64,000 nt of DNA from a bacterium (GTDB taxonomy: Bacteria; Electryoneota; Electryoneia; Electryoneales; Electryoneaceae), in NCBI GenBank assembly GCA_963669175.1, contig OY769902.1, positions 1,743,515 to 1,807,514 on the forward strand, read 5' to 3'. The notes under the pieces are model-generated. The model worked only from the letters and a program-made list of their open reading frames with translations, did no database searches and had not been told where the DNA came from. Position 1 is the first letter of the stretch, and each line of letters begins with the position of its first letter. Below, piece by piece: positions 7,856 to 58,056 of the stretch. Position numbers and translations under genes: made by a program.

Positions 7856-9808
7856 ATGCGTAACGATAGATATACATATTTGTTGATTATTTCCCTGCTG
7901 GCTTTCTCCTTTTTCCCACTGGAGAAATCAATAGCACAATCCCGCAATGTTGTGGTTCCTCGATCCCAGCAGACAGAAGAAATCCGTCAGGAAGCGACCA
8001 GGAAAAGCCGTACCGCTACCAGGCTTGAGCAAAGAGGGCAAATCGACGAGGCGTTGGCAATCTGGGATTTACTGGCGGACCAATTTCCCGACAACAGCTC
8101 CTATTTTGAAGGGCAGGTGCGTTGCCTGACCACGTTGGCCAGGTATAATGAAGCTGCAAGGTTACTGGAAGAGCGGATACCGCTGGAGATAGACCAGCGC
8201 CAGAAAGCGGAATACCTGGTGCGGCTTGGCGGGGTGTACCAGAAACTGAACAAACCGACCCAGGCCGAGGTCAATTACCGTCAGGCCGAGGAGACCGCTC
8301 GAGGGGTGGAAGGCGCTTATCATGCGGTGGCCATGGAGTTTCTGCGTCAACGTCAAACAGAGCGGGCGATTAGCATTTTAAAGTCTTCGCGAGTTGATCT
8401 CGAGAACCCCTATTTGCACGCGTTTACCATCGCATCCCTGAAACAGAATACCATGGACTGGGCCGGAGCGACCGAAGAATACCTGTTGGCGCTCCAGGAA
8501 AGCGGCACACGCAGGCAATCCGTCCTGCGGTCTTTTGCCACTTTCCCCAACGATCCGAATACGGATAAAGCTGTTGAGGCCAGCATTCGTGCGGAGCTGG
8601 ACCGTACCGAGAAGGAGCAGCCCTGGCCCGGGTATCGAGACGCTCTGTGGCAAATCCTGATCGATCAACGGATCAAGAGCGGCAATTTTGAAGGCGCTGT
8701 GGATCTGCTGGAAACAATCCAGGAGGAAGAGGGCGAAGAGGGCTGGCTGCTTCAGTTCGCCCAGACAGCCGTAGACGAAGGCGCGCACGATGCTGCCAGA
8801 CGTGCGCTGGAGATAGCAGCGCAACGCACGCAAAGTGAAAATCGACGCGCTGAAGTTGATCTTGCCCTGGCGACCCTGGTGCAAGCAGAAGGCGATTTCT
8901 CGCAGGCGGACAGTTTGTATGGCACTGTTATCGGAAGGCTGGAGAAGAATCCTACCCTGGCTTATTCAGCCCTGATCCGGCGTGGACAGATGCGATTGAC
9001 GTATGTCGATAATCCATTGGGGGCGTTGGAAGATTTCGAACACCTTGCCGAATTGCAGGGTAAGCAGGTGGAGCAACAGGTTGAGTACCTGCTGGCTGCC
9101 ACACTGCTTCGTCTGCACCGGTATGATGAAGCGCGTCCACATCTGCAACAGACGATTTCGCCCCAACTTCCTGACGAGCCTCAGCGCGGAAGAAGACGTC
9201 CAAGGCAACCGGTTGCCTACGATGCCGGACTGGGCGCTCATGCCGCGTATCTGAATGCACGGTTATCATGGTGGGAGAACAACCCGGAACGAACAACCGC
9301 TATCCTCGATAGCATGCTGAAGCATCCCACCGGCGCAGAAGTGGAAAACGAAGCGTTTGACCTGCTTTTCCTGCTGAGCAGTAAAGCGGATTCAAGTATT
9401 CTCCGTCGATTTGCACAAACAGACCAGGCATTGTTTGAACAACGAGTAGAAGATGCGGAGAACATGCTCGCGTCCATTGCTACGGACACCGCATCATCCT
9501 TGTCCGCAAACGCTTCCTGGTGGCTGGTGGAAATCGCTGTGCAGACCGGGGCGGAGGATGTCCCGGAAGTTGTTGACGCTTATGTCACGCAGTATCCGGG
9601 CACCCCGCGTGCAGAAGAGGCATGGCTGAACCTGGGAATCTGGTATGAGGATCAGGGCTTGACTGATGAAGCGAAAACCTGCTATGAAACGATACTTATC
9701 GACTATTATGACGGCCTGCTGACCTCGGAGGCACGATTGCGCCTGGATCAACTGGCGGGAATGGAACTGCCGCCCCTGCAACCACCTTCGCCTTTTGAGA
9801 CGCCGTAG
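7856..9808 (+). CDS. tetratricopeptide-repeat (TPR) protein with N-terminal signal/anchor
   Basis: ATG at 7856 gives MRNDRYTYLLIISLLAFSFFPLEKSIA (signal-like). The rest is alpha-helical with repeated A/L/Y/E-rich 34-residue periodicity typical of TPR arrays. Track start 7799 is GTG. Confidence 0.6.
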   Translation: MRNDRYTYLLIISLLAFSFFPLEKSIAQSRNVVVPRSQQTEEIRQEATRKSRTATRLEQRGQIDEALAIWDLLADQFPDNSSYFEGQVRCLTTLARYNEAARLLEERIPLEIDQRQKAEYLVRLGGVYQKLNKPTQAEVNYRQAEETARGVEGAYHAVAMEFLRQRQTERAISILKSSRVDLENPYLHAFTIASLKQNTMDWAGATEEYLLALQESGTRRQSVLRSFATFPNDPNTDKAVEASIRAELDRTEKEQPWPGYRDALWQILIDQRIKSGNFEGAVDLLETIQEEEGEEGWLLQFAQTAVDEGAHDAARRALEIAAQRTQSENRRAEVDLALATLVQAEGDFSQADSLYGTVIGRLEKNPTLAYSALIRRGQMRLTYVDNPLGALEDFEHLAELQGKQVEQQVEYLLAATLLRLHRYDEARPHLQQTISPQLPDEPQRGRRRPRQPVAYDAGLGAHAAYLNARLSWWENNPERTTAILDSMLKHPTGAEVENEAFDLLFLLSSKADSSILRRFAQTDQALFEQRVEDAENMLASIATDTASSLSANASWWLVEIAVQTGAEDVPEVVDAYVTQYPGTPRAEEAWLNLGIWYEDQGLTDEAKTCYETILIDYYDGLLTSEARLRLDQLAGMELPPLQPPSPFETP

Positions 9809-11476: not shown

Positions 11477-12240
11477 GCCGTAAAATAGAAAGCCCGGACA
11501 GATGATGAAAGAGAAATCTTACACTCTAGTGCGGATATTTCACGAACGAAACATGGATAATCATCTTAACACAGTTCATATCAGCACAACACAACTGATT
11601 CATACAGCATTTTTCAGGGGACAGTTTGCTCCGGTATCCCTTTGCATGTTTATTCCCTGTTTCGCTGGCAAAATGAGGCTGGGTTTCGGCAACCGCCCCG
11701 GCAGGGGCAACCTGTATTAGCCCCGGGCAGCCGCCGTTTGTTTGGCGGCTACCCGGGGAGATGATTCCCACCATATATTTACTCCGGCAGGAGTAACCTA
11801 AAAATTAATAAAGATATACAACATGAATGGTATGGCAACCCGCTGCCGGGGTTGTTCATGAGGAGAGCATTCATTTCCCACCGTGAGCGCCAAACAGACG
11901 GCGCTGGACGGTGGGCTAATACAGAGAACCACTGCCGTGGTTCTTCTCCTGCCCTTTCCAACGAGGATTCTTGCCCTTGCATTTCCATCAAGGATCACAT
12001 GTGCAAGTGCCAGTCGCGCAATATCCGGTCCACTAGCAATTCAACAGTAACGCGGGTCTTCGGAGCAGAGGTATTTACAGGATGCACATGATGGGGAAGG
12101 ATGAACAGGATAGGAATCATTGGTAAACATCAAAAGAAAAGGGTTCTCAGTTTTGGATTTAATTTTGTATGAACCCTGTTTGACGAGCAAACAGGGGCAG
12201 GTTATAGGGGGCAGGTTGCAGGGATGAAATTTTATGAATT

Positions 12241-14245: not shown

Positions 14246-14480
14246 GTACATTGTATGGTTGAAAGCAAAGAGATGGAAAAAGGGGACTGCCTCCTTTCCC
14301 TGGAGTAAAACTATCCCACTGTGAACATGGACCGGGAAAGGTGGCTGTACCCTTTTCCTTGCGAGCAGGCAAGTAGTCCATGGAAAAGGGTACAGTTTCC
14401 TTTTCTGCAAGTTCAGCGAGAGTGTTTTGTGCGAGCATGAAGAAAAGGATTCCGTCCCCTTTTCCTGACAGCATGTCTAT
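14246..14480. repeat. repeat family B, copy 1 (about 235-bp hairpin-rich element)
   Basis: Shares roughly 80-90% identity with 35414..35663 and 44698..44962. Built from four imperfect palindromic modules of GGAAAAGG...CCTTTTCC type. Short ORFs inside differ in length between copies. Confidence 0.6.
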
Positions 14481-16384: not shown

Positions 16385-16564
16385 AGACCTGACGAAACTG
16401 GCGCTGCATTAGACCTGACGAATCTGGCGCTGCATTAGACCTGATGAAACTGGCGCTGAATTAGACCTGATGAAACTGGTGCTGCATTAGACCTGACGAA
16501 ACTGGCATGGAGTAGACCTGACGAAACTGGCGCTGCATTAGACCTGACGAAACTGGCATGGAGT
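16385..16564. repeat. tandem array, 7 copies of a 25/26-bp unit (agacctgacgaaactggcgctgcatt)
   Basis: Seven head-to-tail units with a few substitutions; two units end in ggcatggagt. No spacers, so not CRISPR. Lies between the BI-1 gene and a small OMP gene. Confidence 0.85.
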
Positions 16565-19402: not shown

Positions 19403-19665
19403 GACGATGATGATACCATGCTGAAAGGTCGCAACCTGATCCTTGCGGGTGATGGGGGATCGTTCAGCATTTTGTATTTTGTATGTGAAGACTGAGTATA
19501 TGTTCTTCATATGTCATCCCCGACTTGATCGGGAGAACTCCTTCCGTTAGTCAAGGGAGTAGATTTACGGTTGTACTTCGTAAACCGCAAGCTTACGGTT
19601 CCCGCCTTCGCGGGAATGACGCAACGGAATACGCCAACATTGGGATTTTGACTTTGTCACCCGCG

Positions 19666-29713: not shown

Positions 29714-29890
29714 CACAGGATAATAGGATGAAAGGATGCCAAGGATAACTGCACAAATATACTTAAAAGATAAAGAAAAGCAATGATACGATTAGAATAA
29801 TAAATGCTATTAATCAATAATATAATTTGTCACCCATAAAATGTGTTTTTATCCTTGAAATCCTTCTATCCTATCATCCTGTTAAGCCTG
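29714..29890. promoter_or_regulatory. dapA upstream module: (AGGAT)n array, AT-rich spacer, inverted (ATCCT)n array
   Basis: cacaggataataggatgaaaggatgccaaggat (29714..29746), about 100 bp of AT-rich DNA, then atccttgaaatccttctatcctatcatcctgt (29851..29882). Same architecture as the glnA upstream module. Confidence 0.4.
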
Positions 29891-31407: not shown

Positions 31408-31578
31408 CTCACAGGATATTAGGATGATAGGATGATAAGGATAAGGCGAAAAGTTCTATTGAAAAGAAAAGATTTTCATTTGATCTTTCAAAAGTAAATA
31501 ATAAATAATTGATTACAGGGTTCTTGCTAATATTTTGTATCCTTGATATCCTTCTATCCTATCATCCTGTGCGACATG
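31408..31578. promoter_or_regulatory. glnA upstream module: (AGGAT)n array, AT-rich spacer, inverted (ATCCT)n array
   Basis: cacaggatattaggatgataggatgataaggat (31408..31447), AT-rich spacer, then tatccttgatatccttctatcctatcatcctgt (31538..31572). Lies between glnB and glnA. Confidence 0.4.
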
Positions 31579-32996: not shown

Positions 32997-33804
32997 GGTT
33001 GTACTGTTTCCGTTAGCCTGATCAATGTTTAGCGAAAATAAATAATGTAGAGGAGCCTATGATACAAGGCAAGAGGTCAAAAATATTACGTCCCCCGGAT
33101 GAAAAAAGGATCAATCATTCATCCGGTTGAAAATACGCGTTTTGACATGTCGTCCCGTACGGCAAGTTCCTGTCGTCGCATGGGGGGTTAGGGAAATCTA
33201 ATCTCCCTTACTGCAATATGTAACTTAAATATGGGTGCCTCACAATCTTGTGTGTGTATACTATATAGGGCACAAACGCCAAGTGAGTATTCAAGTGACC
33301 CACCTTCGGTGGACATGGATGAAACCTGATCAAACTTTCTGTATTCTTGTTGACTATGGTTGTTTGCCCCGCACGAAACGGCGAGGCACCCCAAAATGAA
33401 TGTTCAAATCATGAGTGAGGTTTGTGGCAGGTATCCTGATCATCATGCTGCTGACAGGGACTTCCTGTTTACAAGATGCTCCTCAAATCCAGTAGTCGTG
33501 AAGGTTTTAGCACGGGGTAACTTGGCTCTCCTGTAATTAGCCTATTCCTCGCGAGACAAACTCTTGATAAGGCAAAAATTGAATATTGTCTTCGTAATTG
33601 TCTATTATTGAATATAGTATCGAAATTCATAATCGGGGATGTAAGATCTCAGCAAACATCTGGTTCTGCCTACTCCAACCTTCCTGAATTGCTCGCCTAT
33701 TGTTTGCATTGTAGATCTACAAGTCTTTAAACTTATAAATACATATGTTAGGAACGGGAAGAGCAACTTTGTCACATTTTTCACAAAGCAGTACAGGAGG
33801 GAGC

Positions 33805-35253
33805 ATGAGATCAGGATGCCTTGTTTTGTTTATCCTTGTCTTTGCATTCGTGATGATCGGGTGTGAAGGGGAGGTTGGGCCCCAGGGACCGGCAGGTCCG
33901 GAAGGCCCGGAAGGAGCGCAAGGCCCGGCGGGTGAAGATGGGCAGGATGGGCAGGGTGTGTATGAGTTTACCTACCTAGGCAATGGTGGCGAAGACTGTA
34001 TGCACTGCCACATGACAACGGTTTCCAACTGGAGCGGCACCAAGCATTACGAAGCTTACGCGGACCTGGATTCGGAAAGTAAGGAAAATCCGTATTGCGT
34101 GAAGTGCCACGTTACCGGTTGGGACAGCGAAGTCGCGTATGGTGATACCGTCATCAATGTATACGGTCCCGATACGACTGGTTTTGATGATTACTGGATG
34201 GTAGAGACCGATGAGGCGGAAGAGCGTCGCATGGCCTTGGCTGGTGTGCAGTGTGAGGCTTGTCACGGTGGCATGGGACCAGACTTCAACGCACATCGTC
34301 CCAATATCAGTTTTGCCACTCATAACGATGAGGATGGTGAATCCTTATCCCTTTGTTCGCCTTGTCACAGCACCCAGTTGAATGAATGGGTGGAATCCGG
34401 GCATGCGGCTGTGCAGGCTTCGTTGACGCCGGAACAGTTTACAGATGAATTCGGACGTTCATCATGCAACCCCTGCCATACCTCGGAAGGTTTCCTTGCC
34501 GCCAATGACCCGGCGTATGCGACCTATGAGTTTGATGAACTGCAATCCTACATCGGTTGTGTGACCTGTCATGATCCGCACTCCAACACCTACGAAGCCC
34601 AGGTGCGCACGGTAGGTGCGGTTGAGACGGTGTACCATCCCGGTTATGAAGATGGCGACCCGGAAGTGGCGACCATGGACGGGTACGGTGTCGGCCAGGT
34701 TTGTGCGCAGTGCCACCACGGACGGCGTGATGCGGACAACGTTGACAGCCAGATTGCAGACGGCTACGCTCACTTCGGTCCGCACGGTTCCCCGCAGATG
34801 GACACCTACATCGGTACCGGTTGTTACGAGATCGAGGACTTCGTCTATGAAGGCAGCCATGCACATCAGTCGATCAGCAACGGCTGCGTAAGCTGTCACA
34901 TGGAACGTGAAGCGATTATCCATGGCGAGCTCCAGGATCACTCGTTCCATTCTTTCACACCGGATGCGGATAACTGCCTGCCCTGCCACAGCATCGAAGA
35001 TTTCGATTACAACGGTGTCCAGACCGAGGTCATGGACAAACTGGATCAATTGGCCCAGGCGCTCGGCTACACAGATCGTGATGATTTCGAAGCCAACTTC
35101 GACAGCCAGGCGGATGGAGTTACCGCTGATGAACGTATGATTGCCTACGCAATGGTGTTCATTCTGAACGATGGCAGCTATGGTGTGCACAATCCTACGT
35201 ACGTGATGGATCTGCTGGACAACGCGATTTCCTATTCGGCAACACTGCCGTAA
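33805..35253 (+). CDS. lipoprotein with collagen-like GXY repeat fused to a nine-heme c-type cytochrome
   Basis: RBS AGGAGGG before ATG 33805. Lipobox VMIGC. Ten consecutive GXY triplets (GEVGPQGPAGPEGPEGAQGPAGEDGQDGQG). Nine CxxCH motifs (CMHCH, CVKCH, CEACH, CSPCH, CNPCH, CVTCH, CAQCH, CVSCH, CLPCH). Confidence 0.75.
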   Translation: MRSGCLVLFILVFAFVMIGCEGEVGPQGPAGPEGPEGAQGPAGEDGQDGQGVYEFTYLGNGGEDCMHCHMTTVSNWSGTKHYEAYADLDSESKENPYCVKCHVTGWDSEVAYGDTVINVYGPDTTGFDDYWMVETDEAEERRMALAGVQCEACHGGMGPDFNAHRPNISFATHNDEDGESLSLCSPCHSTQLNEWVESGHAAVQASLTPEQFTDEFGRSSCNPCHTSEGFLAANDPAYATYEFDELQSYIGCVTCHDPHSNTYEAQVRTVGAVETVYHPGYEDGDPEVATMDGYGVGQVCAQCHHGRRDADNVDSQIADGYAHFGPHGSPQMDTYIGTGCYEIEDFVYEGSHAHQSISNGCVSCHMEREAIIHGELQDHSFHSFTPDADNCLPCHSIEDFDYNGVQTEVMDKLDQLAQALGYTDRDDFEANFDSQADGVTADERMIAYAMVFILNDGSYGVHNPTYVMDLLDNAISYSATLP

Positions 35254-35280
35254 TAGATTGTTCTTATTTTTTGACAAACA

Positions 35281-35318
35281 ACGGGACAGGCCGGTGCTGG
35301 TCTGTCCCGTTGTTCTCC
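35281..35318 (+). terminator. candidate terminator after the cytochrome gene
   Basis: Stem acgggacag / ctgtcccgt with a 12-nt loop, followed by tgttctcc. The U-tract is weak. Confidence 0.35.
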
Positions 35319-35413
35319 CTGATTCATACTGACTCACAGGATGTACAGATGGAGATTTATAGCGATTCCCATTATTATTCCGTCATGTGCAAGATCAGTG
35401 AAAGGTCAACCAT

Positions 35414-35663
35414 ATGGTTGGAATAAAGGATAAGGATATGGAAAAAGGGGACAGTTTCCTTTCCCTGGGGCAAAGCCTTCCCGCTGTGAGCATGGACCGG
35501 GAAAGGTGGCTGTACCCTTTTTCTTGAGAGCAGGCAGGACGTACACGGAAAAGGGTACAGTTTCCTTTTCCACAAGTTCGGCGAGAGTTTTTCATATGCG
35601 CGCGAGGAAAAGGATCCCGTCCCCTTTTCCCGGCAATCCTTATTATGTCGGAATAAAATCGAG
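35414..35663. repeat. repeat family B, copy 2
   Basis: Aligned with 14246..14480 and 44698..44962. Ends in ggaataaaatcgagaa as copy 3 does. Confidence 0.6.
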
Positions 35664-35772
35664 AACAGCAATACAAGATGTACAGGATGTTGAAGGATGA
35701 TCAGGATGGGAAATGATTGCTTGAGATAACTTTAGAATATAGTAGCGTGTCAACTTTTTACCTTTTGCTGTT

Positions 35773-36045
35773 ATCCCCGGCTTCGACCGGGGATCTCGCG
35801 GGATATCGTGTAAAGCCCGTTTGGCACTACTTGTGCGTCGTGGTGTACGTCTAACAGTCGGGATACTGGTAGCGCAACCTCGAGATCCCCGTTCAAGCCG
35901 GGGATGACATGGGGATGGGGGATGGGGATGGGGGATGGGGATGACATGGGGATGGGGATGACATGGGGATGGGGTGGGGATGACATAGGGACTGGGGGAT
36001 GGGGATGACATGGGGATGGGGGATGGGGATGACATGGATATTGGG
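35773..36045. repeat. hairpin repeats (family C) plus G-rich heptamer tandem tract
   Basis: Hairpins atccccggcttcgaccggggat and gagatccccgttcaagccggggatgacat, followed by about 140 bp of GGGGATG/GGGGATGACAT units. The overlapping 173-aa minus-strand ORF is a low-complexity artefact. Confidence 0.7.
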
Positions 36046-36186
36046 AGGACGGATGGCCCGATGCACAGGTGACAATACTTCCATACCAAACGGAGCAGGC
36101 AAACTCTCACAAGAACAAGCCTTACCAGTTGTTCTTCGAGTGCGTCGGGATGAATGAAAAACAATACCTTATAACTTCAAATCAAA

Positions 36187-36876
36187 CTACAATGAAAATC
36201 TGCGTAACCGTTGGAAAACGACCGGCACCAGCAGGATAAACACCAGTGTATTGGTTACCAGGTGCATCACGACAAAGGGCAATCCCAGCAGGAAATACGC
36301 CAGCCAGTTGTGCCAGTGAAGCAGACCTGCGGAGAGTGGGAAGGCCAGGGAGGTCAGGGAATCATAAATGAATGTAAGCAGCAGGCCGAAGCAGCCGCTG
36401 ATAATCACCTGAATTTTCAAAGGGGATTGTTGTAACCACGACCGCAACAAACCGAAAGTCATCCCCATGAGCCCCATTCCGGTTATCTGGGCGGCCCATA
36501 CGGGCGGATAAGGCAGTCCCCAGGCATTCAGACCGCCGTAGATCAACATGGCGAACCCACCGACGACAAAACCACTCGATGCTCCGAGCGTCAAACCGGC
36601 AAGCGCGACGGTAGCGCTGATCAGCTCGAAGTTCGGCACGATCGTCAGCAGGTAGCCGAGGGCCACAGCAGCAGCCGTAAACATGGCAACACGAGCCAGC
36701 AAAACAGCCTGGCTTCTCTTGAACCGTGCCGAATGCTCGAACGGGTCACCGGGGTTGTTGGAATTGTGCTGATTTTCCACGATTTTTCGACCTGGTTTCT
36801 TTTGCATGCCACGCAAAGTTAGGTCCGGCAGAGAAACTTTGCAATCATGCGGGAACCCTCGGAACAGTATATTCAT
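36187..36876 (-). CDS. integral membrane protein, possibly an ECF-transporter S component
   Basis: Five or six hydrophobic helices, Gly-rich. No soluble domain. Start uncertain. Family guess only. Confidence 0.35.
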   Translation of the reverse strand: MNILFRGFPHDCKVSLPDLTLRGMQKKPGRKIVENQHNSNNPGDPFEHSARFKRSQAVLLARVAMFTAAAVALGYLLTIVPNFELISATVALAGLTLGASSGFVVGGFAMLIYGGLNAWGLPYPPVWAAQITGMGLMGMTFGLLRSWLQQSPLKIQVIISGCFGLLLTFIYDSLTSLAFPLSAGLLHWHNWLAYFLLGLPFVVMHLVTNTLVFILLVPVVFQRLRRFSL

Positions 36877-40336: not shown

Positions 40337-40342
40337 AATTGT

Positions 40343-40414
40343 CAGATAGCAGAATGAATTCAGATTGCAGAATGAATTCAGATTGCAGAATGAATTCAGA
40401 TAGCAGAATAAATA
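40343..40414. repeat. tandem array, 4 copies of an 18-bp unit (cagattgcagaatgaatt)
   Basis: Direct head-to-tail repeats immediately right of the MITE-like element. Confidence 0.8.
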
Positions 40415-44664: not shown

Positions 44665-44697
44665 GTTCTGTCATATGTTCATTTGCTGTATCAGTGC

Positions 44698-44962
44698 GAG
44701 ATCCACTGTATGGTTAATGGTTAGAGGAAAGGAAATGGAAAAAGGGGACTGCCTCCTTTCCCCGGGGTAAAGCCTTCCCGCTGTGAAAATGGACCGGGAA
44801 AGGTGGCTGTACCTTTTTTCTTGAGAACAGGCTGGAATTATACGGAAAAGGGGATAGCTTCCTTTCCCACGAGTTCAGCTAGCGTTTTTTGTGTGAGTGC
44901 GAGGAAAAGGATTCCGTCTCCTTTTCCCGACAATCTCATCACAACGGAATAAAATCGAGAAT
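44698..44962. repeat. repeat family B, copy 3
   Basis: Directly right of the IS. Aligned with copies at 14246 and 35414. Confidence 0.6.
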
Positions 44963-54667: not shown

Positions 54668-54756
54668 AGGAAAAGGGGACTGTTTCCTTTTCGTTGCGCT
54701 GAGATATATGATTATAAATACAGGGGATCGAAAAGGGGACTGTCCCCTTTTCCATG
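54668..54756. repeat. repeat family B, partial/degenerate copy
   Basis: Two palindromic modules ggaaaaggggactgtttccttttc and gaaaaggggactgtccccttttcc about 50 bp apart. Confidence 0.45.
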
Positions 54757-57970: not shown

Positions 57971-58056
57971 GCGAGATCCCCGTTATGTTCACGGCTGTGC
58001 TTCGCACACCGCAAGCTTCGCTTCGCTATGGTTCAAGCCGGGGATGACATGATGGG
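57971..58056. repeat. hairpin repeat (family C) copy with inserted loop
   Basis: gcgagatccccg ... ggttcaagccggggatgacatg matches the 35882..35914 hairpin but carries a 49-nt insertion. Confidence 0.5.

Follow-up and report, generated by a model that had tools for sequence, protein, structure and literature searches.

In the 64-kb stretch of DNA analysed here, hereafter the window, two short hairpins are followed by a G-rich tract within a 930-bp gap between two convergent genes, which raises the question of what these elements are and how they are related to each other. The gap is bordered on the left by a multihaem cytochrome gene (33745-35253, plus strand) and on the right by the gene of an ECF-transporter S component (36187-36876, minus strand), and the G-rich tract is downstream of both. 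The window is chromosomal. Its YchF protein, compared with the nearest named relatives, gave 62% for Ca. Electryonea clarkiae and 57-58% for Calditrichota, and a megablast search with the locus DNA returned no close match in E. coli genomes, plasmids or phages. We consider it likely that the locus as a whole is selfish or neutral repeat DNA between convergent genes, consisting of a doublet of Ssn-related motifs (SRMs) and a satellite of half-SRM units. Placing the hairpins and the tract in the Ssn/SRM system, which was described recently, gives a concrete identity that replaces the description as a tRNA-like hairpin plus G-quadruplex (G4) tract that the initial annotation had offered, and it adds three points that were absent from it: the hairpins are mutually inverted, the G-rich tract repeats the outer half of the right hairpin, and the hairpin falls in a family linked to GIY-YIG nucleases (PMC11893778).

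The two hairpins preceding the tract were found just as first described. The left hairpin (35773-35794) is ATCCCCGG-CTTCGA-CCGGGGAT and the right hairpin (35884-35910) is GATCCCCG-TTCAAGC-CGGGGATGACAT; in an inverted-repeat search they were inverted copies of one another, with TGTTATCCCCGGCTTCGACCGGG and CCCCGTTCAAGCCGGGGATGACA being 83% complementary. Together with its orienting flanks, the left copy, a degenerate SRM hairpin, spans 35769-35798 on the plus strand (T-GTTAT-CCCCGG-CTTCGA-CCGGGG-ATCTCG; predicted DNA fold of -9.1 kcal/mol, z -3.1), and the right SRM hairpin spans 35881-35909 on the minus strand (T-GTCAT-CCCCG-GCTTGAA-CGGGG-ATCTCG; predicted fold of -6.8 kcal/mol). They form a gene-less inverted doublet (35769-35909) with GT(C/T)AT at both outer ends, and the spacer inside the doublet (35799-35880) leaves no room for a gene and occurs only once in the window. 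When 35766-35912 was folded as ssDNA, it was predicted to form one long hairpin of -40.4 kcal/mol, compared with -21.6 kcal/mol in shuffles (z -7.05), and none of 200 shuffles was as good. The four short hairpin copies of the window also fold as DNA with the expected stem, at -5.1 to -9.1 kcal/mol, with modest z-scores of -1.6 to -3.1 for the single hairpins.

Judged by their sequence, these hairpins are members of the SRM/NTS family, which is found in many phyla, so that the independent repeat mentioned as an option in the initial annotation turns out to have a family. Chenal et al. (Nat Commun 2025, PMC11893778) defined the Neisseria Transformation Sequence (NTS) as CGTCATTCCCGCGMAVGCGGGAATCYRG and a broader SRM pattern as HGTCWYN(0-2)YYVSBRHN(0-5)WNVSBRGN(0-2)RNCYNB; an SRM is an oriented hairpin of GTCAT plus a palindrome that is bound by small GIY-YIG ssDNA endonucleases, and the Ssn cut falls a few nucleotides 5' of GTCAT. 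SsnA is a 94-aa single-domain GIY-YIG protein (cd10448) that binds the motif as ssDNA only and on one strand only, and in the N. meningitidis SsnA cleavage is governed by the three nucleotides 5' of the palindrome and binding by the C just 3' of it (PMC11893778). SRMs lie near 71% of the ssnA homologues surveyed there and on both sides of 42% (PMC11893778). In the window, the SRM pattern gave three matches, at 35881-35909 (minus strand), 19512-19541 (plus strand) and 19595-19621 (minus strand), against 0.24 per shuffled window, and in all three the palindrome is preceded by GTC on its 5' side and directly followed by a C on its 3' side. The minus strand of the right hairpin, GTC-ATCCCCG...CGGGGAT-C, thus carries both orienting features. 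The left hairpin fails the published pattern because its conserved GTC is mutated to GTT.

The matches at 19512-19541 (TGTCATCCCCGACTTGATCGGGAGAACTCC) and 19595-19621 (CGTCATTCCCGCGAAGGCGGGAACCGT, of the canonical NTS type) are the left and right members of a second inverted doublet. This pair (19512-19621) comes in addition to the copies that had been noticed initially. A solitary SRM-type hairpin lies on the minus strand at 57978-58048, within the interval 57971-58056 for which a related hairpin with an insertion had been reported; its arms are indeed identical (GTCAT-CCCCG ... CGGGG-ATCTCG), and exactly 49 extra nucleotides (57990-58038) bring its loop to 56 nt. The long loop alone makes this copy fail the SRM pattern, which allows 5 nt at most. 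Loop insertions were also observed in other genomes, one of 16 nt in L057, with TCAAG duplicated on either side, and one of about 40 nt in L078. These insertions fit the report that neither the identity nor the length of the loop is essential for cleavage (PMC11893778).

Compared with the NTS/SRM-Ssn system, the window hairpins share the oriented GTCAT-palindrome-ATC structure, the multi-copy and intergenic occurrence and the inverted pairs with GTCAT pointing outward, as in NTS-ssnA-NTS (PMC11893778), and in other genomes, single-domain GIY-YIG genes have the identical hairpin on their flanks. They differ in that the window doublets have no ssn gene between the hairpins, the stem is CCCCG instead of TCCCGCG, and one arm is mutated (GTT). 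Similarities to REP, BIME and REPIN-RAYT elements, as discussed by Chenal et al. (PMC11893778) and generally known, include short extragenic palindromes with an orienting 5' motif that are recognised as ssDNA. The position between convergent genes and the inverted doublets folding into one long hairpin are similar as well. However, the orienting motif is GTCAT here and GTAG there, and the family enzyme is a GIY-YIG nuclease, in contrast with the HUH/Y1 transposase of the IS200/IS605 type. The GTCAT motif and the GIY-YIG genes flanked by the hairpin elsewhere speak against membership in REP or REPIN-RAYT, and only the geometry of the doublet is REPIN-like. The units of the Neisseria NIME are 50-150-bp blocks bounded by complete dRS3 palindromes. 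The units in the window, in contrast, are 6-24 nt in length and hold just the outer half of the hairpin. What the dRS3/NIME elements have in common with the present locus is the intergenic arrangement of short repeats with hairpins of the ATTCCC-N8-GGGAAT type in arrays (PMC11893778).

To place the hairpin among other genomes, an 18-nt core, TCAAGYCGGGGATGACAT, was scanned in one representative genome per species. The core occurred in at least 106 stretches from many phyla, and among the matches listed the complete hairpin, in which the core is preceded by ATCCCCG, was present in 76 of 109; the remaining listed matches without a hairpin (about 33 of 109) roughly equal the chance 18-mer matches estimated for a collection of this size. 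The taxa among the matches listed include Fibrobacter, Bacteroidales, Patescibacteria, Sphingomonadales, Rickettsiales, Gammaproteobacteria, Planctomycetia, Zixibacteria and others. The consensus of the 76 related hairpins, again among the matches listed, is GGATCCCCG(A/G)-TCAAG-(T/C)CGGGGATGAC with a 6-bp stem and a 5-nt loop, or (C/G)(T/A)GGATCCCCG(A/G)TCAAG(T/C)CGGGGATGACAT in its extended form, and within those matches the hairpin is often paired with, and preceded by, GTCATTCCCGCGAAGGCGGGAATCC. The SRM hairpins of the window extend this distribution to a deep-branching lineage near Calditrichota and Ca. Electryonea.

At four loci (L038, L093, L104 and L105), the hairpin is present on both sides of an ORF of 93-117 aa with GTCAT outward on each side, and the sole Pfam domain of these ORFs is GIY-YIG (E of 3e-15 to 4e-17). 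The doublets of the window have the same geometry with no gene between the hairpins, and no GIY-YIG gene was found in the 64-kb window. Among the 106 loci of 8 kb each, an ssn gene was present in only four. A weak tblastn match of Ssn to an ORF of L115 was considered as an ssn gene and rejected, as the ORF is not GIY-YIG.

The G-rich tract runs from 35900 or 35911 to approximately 36037. It had been annotated as about 140 bp of GGGGATG and other units with more than 20 G-runs; the tract was confirmed, while the run count and the unit needed correction. Between 35900 and 36045 there are 18 G-runs of at least three, of which 16 are of at least four, and the tract is built of GGGGAT, GGGGGAT and GGGGATGACAT; to read GGGGATG as a heptamer is to borrow the first G of the next unit. 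GGGGATG itself is concentrated far beyond chance, with 15 of its 25 window sites within these 138 bp. Six exact copies of GGGGATGACAT start at 35900, 35937, 35954, 35976, 36001 and 36025, and the order of units is GGGGATGACAT, GGGGAT, GGGGGAT, GGGGAT, GGGGGAT, GGGGATGACAT, GGGGAT, GGGGATGACAT, GGGGAT, GGGGT, followed by GGGGATGACAT, (A)GGGACT, GGGGGAT, GGGGATGACAT, GGGGAT, GGGGGAT and GGGGATGACAT. Over 35900-36037, Tandem Repeats Finder (TRF) reported periods of 6 (20.5 copies, score 103), 7, 17 and 24, the period of 24 with 3.8 copies, 89% matches and a score of 150, and the corresponding higher-order unit of approximately 24 nt is GGGGAT-GGGGGAT-GGGGATGACAT.

The 3' arm of the right hairpin supplies the first GGGGATGACAT, so that the tract reiterates that arm and the ATGACAT after it. 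The half-SRM unit array proper (35911-36035, plus strand) then contains five further copies of GGGGATGACAT interleaved with GGGGAT and GGGGGAT at the higher-order period of about 24 nt. On the minus strand, which is the SRM strand, the sequence of the tract is (…CATCCCC…ATGTCATCCCC)n, with the complete motif ATGTCATCCCCGGCTTGAACGGGGATCTCG following immediately; the array therefore abuts the GTCAT or cleavage side of the right SRM, namely its 5' side. The letters themselves show that the tract is derived from the arm of the right hairpin, its outer half being copied many times: in all six exact copies of GGGGATGACAT, the opening letters are those of the 3' arm of the hairpin itself. The minus-strand frames are probably open for no other reason than that stop codons do not occur in the C-rich repeat; no expression signals were detected, and the idea that these frames are coding was dropped.

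One-sided arrays of half-SRM units recur in unrelated genomes and in the closest relative retrieved. Allowing one mismatch, the outer half GGATGACAT recurs within 60 nt on the outer side of 8 of the 76 true hairpins and on the inner side of 1 of 76 among the matches listed, whereas no outer-side recurrence of the inner half was seen among the 76, with about 0.5 expected by chance. Of 100 hairpins fitting the SRM pattern, the outer half recurs 5' in 13, compared with 4, 2 and 4 for the other combinations of half and side, and these recurrences of the other combinations are mostly neighbouring complete SRMs. The statistics on one-sidedness are based on approximately 100 hairpins chosen with a pattern that was derived from the window hairpin itself. 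The arrays have periods of 22 nt in L010, 24 in L026, 21 in L049, about 20-22 at two loci in L085, 20 in L088 and 25 in L094, and L086 has a period of 21 at two loci with up to 5-7 units that decay with distance. The 24-nt higher-order period in the window fits this series.

The closest relative retrieved, L115 (GCA_964648415.1, CAZYOC010000074.1), has a YchF that is 84% identical to that of the window, and a 1.2-kb gap beside its ychF is full of SRM-like hairpins (GTCATTCCTGCGCAGGCAGGAATCC and a CTCTCAT variant). Arrays with 41-42-nt periods, of 3.5 and 4.2 copies (8891-9039 and 9570-9740), adjoin at least two of these hairpins on the GTCAT side, and a third has a single extra half-unit on the GTCAT side. 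What makes the array in the window G-rich is that truncated units, GGGGAT and GGGGGAT, have taken the place of its spacer. In the main text of Chenal et al. (PMC11893778), half-motif tandem arrays such as the one on the cleavage side here are absent: the word 'tandem' does not occur, and the sole uses of 'array' and 'duplicat' are unrelated. The one-sided half-motif array is thus a feature beyond the one paper that describes the SRM family.

Under the preferred explanation of repeat DNA between convergent genes, the doublet would be the empty counterpart of the SRM>ssn<SRM unit of other genomes, and the tract would be a satellite that arose as the right SRM's outer half, namely GTCAT and the first stem arm, was duplicated locally time and again together with a short spacer. 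The satellite would have grown outward from the foot of the hairpin, on the side where Ssn cuts. A likely route would be template switching or slippage when the extruded hairpin brings synthesis to a halt, and a minus-strand nick by Ssn, immediately 5' of GTCAT, may have contributed. Slipped-strand expansion and unequal exchange may have followed, with the spacer in the source genome being overwritten by truncated GGGGAT units. The half-units have neither the palindrome nor the C after it, both of which are needed for binding of SsnA (PMC11893778). For this reason, and considering that in other genomes the units become more degenerate the farther they lie from the hairpin, the half-units are probably scars and not working sites.

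A more specific proposal, which we regard as possible but doubtful, is that one-sided half-SRM arrays are footprints of Ssn acting on the chromosome, where a nick made 5' of GTCAT, while the DNA is transiently single-stranded, provokes template switching and thereby a further copy of the outer half-site. In that case, the position and the strand of Ssn cuts in vivo could be read from the arrays, the arrays would offer an approach to the open question of how SRM/NTS repeats come to multiply, and the G-rich version would in addition set a strong G4 beside a nuclease site. More generally, if the arrays are by-products of Ssn nicking or of replication stalled at hairpins, they would provide a cheap genomic read-out of Ssn activity in vivo and could help explain the expansion of the repeats to hundreds of copies. 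If they are products of slippage only, the locus would be ordinary repeat DNA with an unusually strong G4-forming strand.

The G4 potential that had been ascribed to the tract was borne out computationally by a motif scan and by G4Hunter. No other multi-motif cluster of canonical G4s is present in the 64-kb window: the tract has 24 overlapping G3+N1-7 motif starts in 35900-36002, and elsewhere there are two isolated single motifs near 33.9 kb; the G4Hunter score over the tract is the highest in the window, with a mean of 2.06 and a peak of 2.88. The sequence has at least four runs of G3+ separated by loops of 1-7 nt and a G4Hunter score of at least 1.5, as is expected of G4-forming sequences, and the predicted G4 potential of the plus strand is very high. 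The C-runs of the minus strand might form an i-motif. The GC skew is positive on the plus strand across most of the window, and this is only suggestive of the G-rich strand being on the lagging-strand template. The tract resembles G4-forming microsatellites in its eighteen G3-5 runs, its 1-7-nt loops and a G4Hunter score above 2. It differs from them in that it owes its G-richness, as a by-product, to the particular hairpin arm that was amplified and in that the sister half-SRM arrays of other genomes are not G-rich. Formation of a G4 on the plus strand is plausibly a side effect of the array.

One alternative is that the array is a selected element, either a G4 roadblock or terminator or a set of phased half-sites for protein binding, iteron-like and with about two helical turns per unit. 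The extreme predicted G4 propensity (G4Hunter mean of 2.06) would suit such a role, as would the placement of the tract where read-through from both convergent genes would collide, and a simple scan found no canonical intrinsic terminator in the gap between these genes. The periods elsewhere, which cluster at 20-25 and 41-42 nt, correspond to about two or four helical turns. However, the arrays of other genomes have unrelated spacers that are not G-rich, so G4 formation is not the conserved feature, and the decay of units with distance in L086 is what would be expected of unselected duplications. As working half-sites, moreover, the units would have to do without the palindrome and the 3' C that SsnA binding requires. 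The tract is also not conserved outside the source genome, since in a metagenome scan the exact junction of hairpin and array was not found outside it and yielded six chance matches in coding-like DNA and no strain variants. Considering these points, selection on the array seems improbable.

A sequencing or assembly artefact, in which the tract length or the alternation of G4 and G5 runs would come from homopolymer or repeat-collapse errors, is still harder to maintain. The source is a single contig of 5,447,365 bp, which may mean a long-read assembly, and run lengths of G4 versus G5 are the kind of detail that long reads get wrong. Against this, the higher-order structure is ordered and the flanks of the tract are unique, and analogous arrays are present in many independent assemblies; at most the exact unit counts would be affected and not the existence of the tract. 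We therefore regard an artefact as very unlikely.

Another alternative is a small RNA gene, such as a sponge of the CsrA/RsmA type with a GGA motif in each GGGGAUG, which would draw on about 17 GGA-containing units in 138 nt and on AGGATG triplets just upstream (35684-35708). However, no promoter- or terminator-like signals bracket the tract, around which a simple signal scan detected no enrichment of promoters or terminators, and Rfam gave no CsrB/Rsm match even at E<=10. Across Rfam, no family reached the gathering score and relaxed E-values gave only spurious miRNA and snoRNA matches that reflect the hairpin shape. The GGA motifs are not displayed in hairpin loops, and the units are fully explained as copies of the hairpin arm, which leaves a small RNA scarcely credible.

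Next to no probability attaches to the tRNA-derived relic of the initial annotation. On this reading, a decayed tRNA or an integration (att) site would have left the hairpin as its T-arm and ATGACAT as its 3' acceptor strand. The loop of this copy, TTCAAGC, does have 7 nt and start with TTC, on a 5-bp stem followed by 7 nt, but this look is peculiar to the copy, because a T/C mismatch replaces the loop-closing A-T or G-C pair, and is no family trait, given the 6-bp stem and 5-nt TCAAG loop in the consensus of 76 copies. ATGAC complements the GTCAT that SRMs conserve, and a tRNA remnant would not account for the inverted orientation of the partner hairpin. ARAGORN found no tRNA or tmRNA gene in the window, and Rfam recovered none either.

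Several other features of the gap and of the window were observed. A 16-bp inverted repeat with 94% complementarity (35277-35314), located 24 nt past the stop codon of the cytochrome gene, is probably the stem of the transcription terminator of this gene, and the terminator scan missed it because it has no T-run. In the distant relatives L107 and L108, the ECF S-component gene directly adjoins ychF with a gap of about 94 nt. In the source genome, the multihaem cytochrome gene and two repeat-rich spacers separate the two genes (32997-36186), and in L115 the repeat-filled gap and a PBP gene are present at the corresponding place beside ychF. The ychF neighbourhood is accordingly a variable spot in the lineage, as compared among the window, L107, L108 and L115.

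The hexamer AGGATG occurs 71 times in the window, compared with 36 expected, and forms small intergenic tandem clusters at 29725-29738, 31421-31434 and 35684-35708; a 41-nt stretch with three AGGATG from the last cluster recurs at 12076-12116 with 83% identity. Two tandem repeats unrelated to the SRM array are located at 16385-16557 (26 nt, 6.7 copies, 89% matches) and 40342-40413 (18 nt, 4 copies, 94% matches). Another repeat element of approximately 200-285 bp comprises four GGAAAAGG-N9-CCTTTTCC hairpins spaced by about 59, 47 and 59 nt, and its copies at 35383-35665, 14267-14465, 44679-44961 and 54669-54753 are 81-85% identical. The first of these lies in the same intergenic gap as the SRM doublet, and the GGAAAAGG-N9-CCTTTTCC hairpin pattern has 22 matches, compared with 0.09 by chance.
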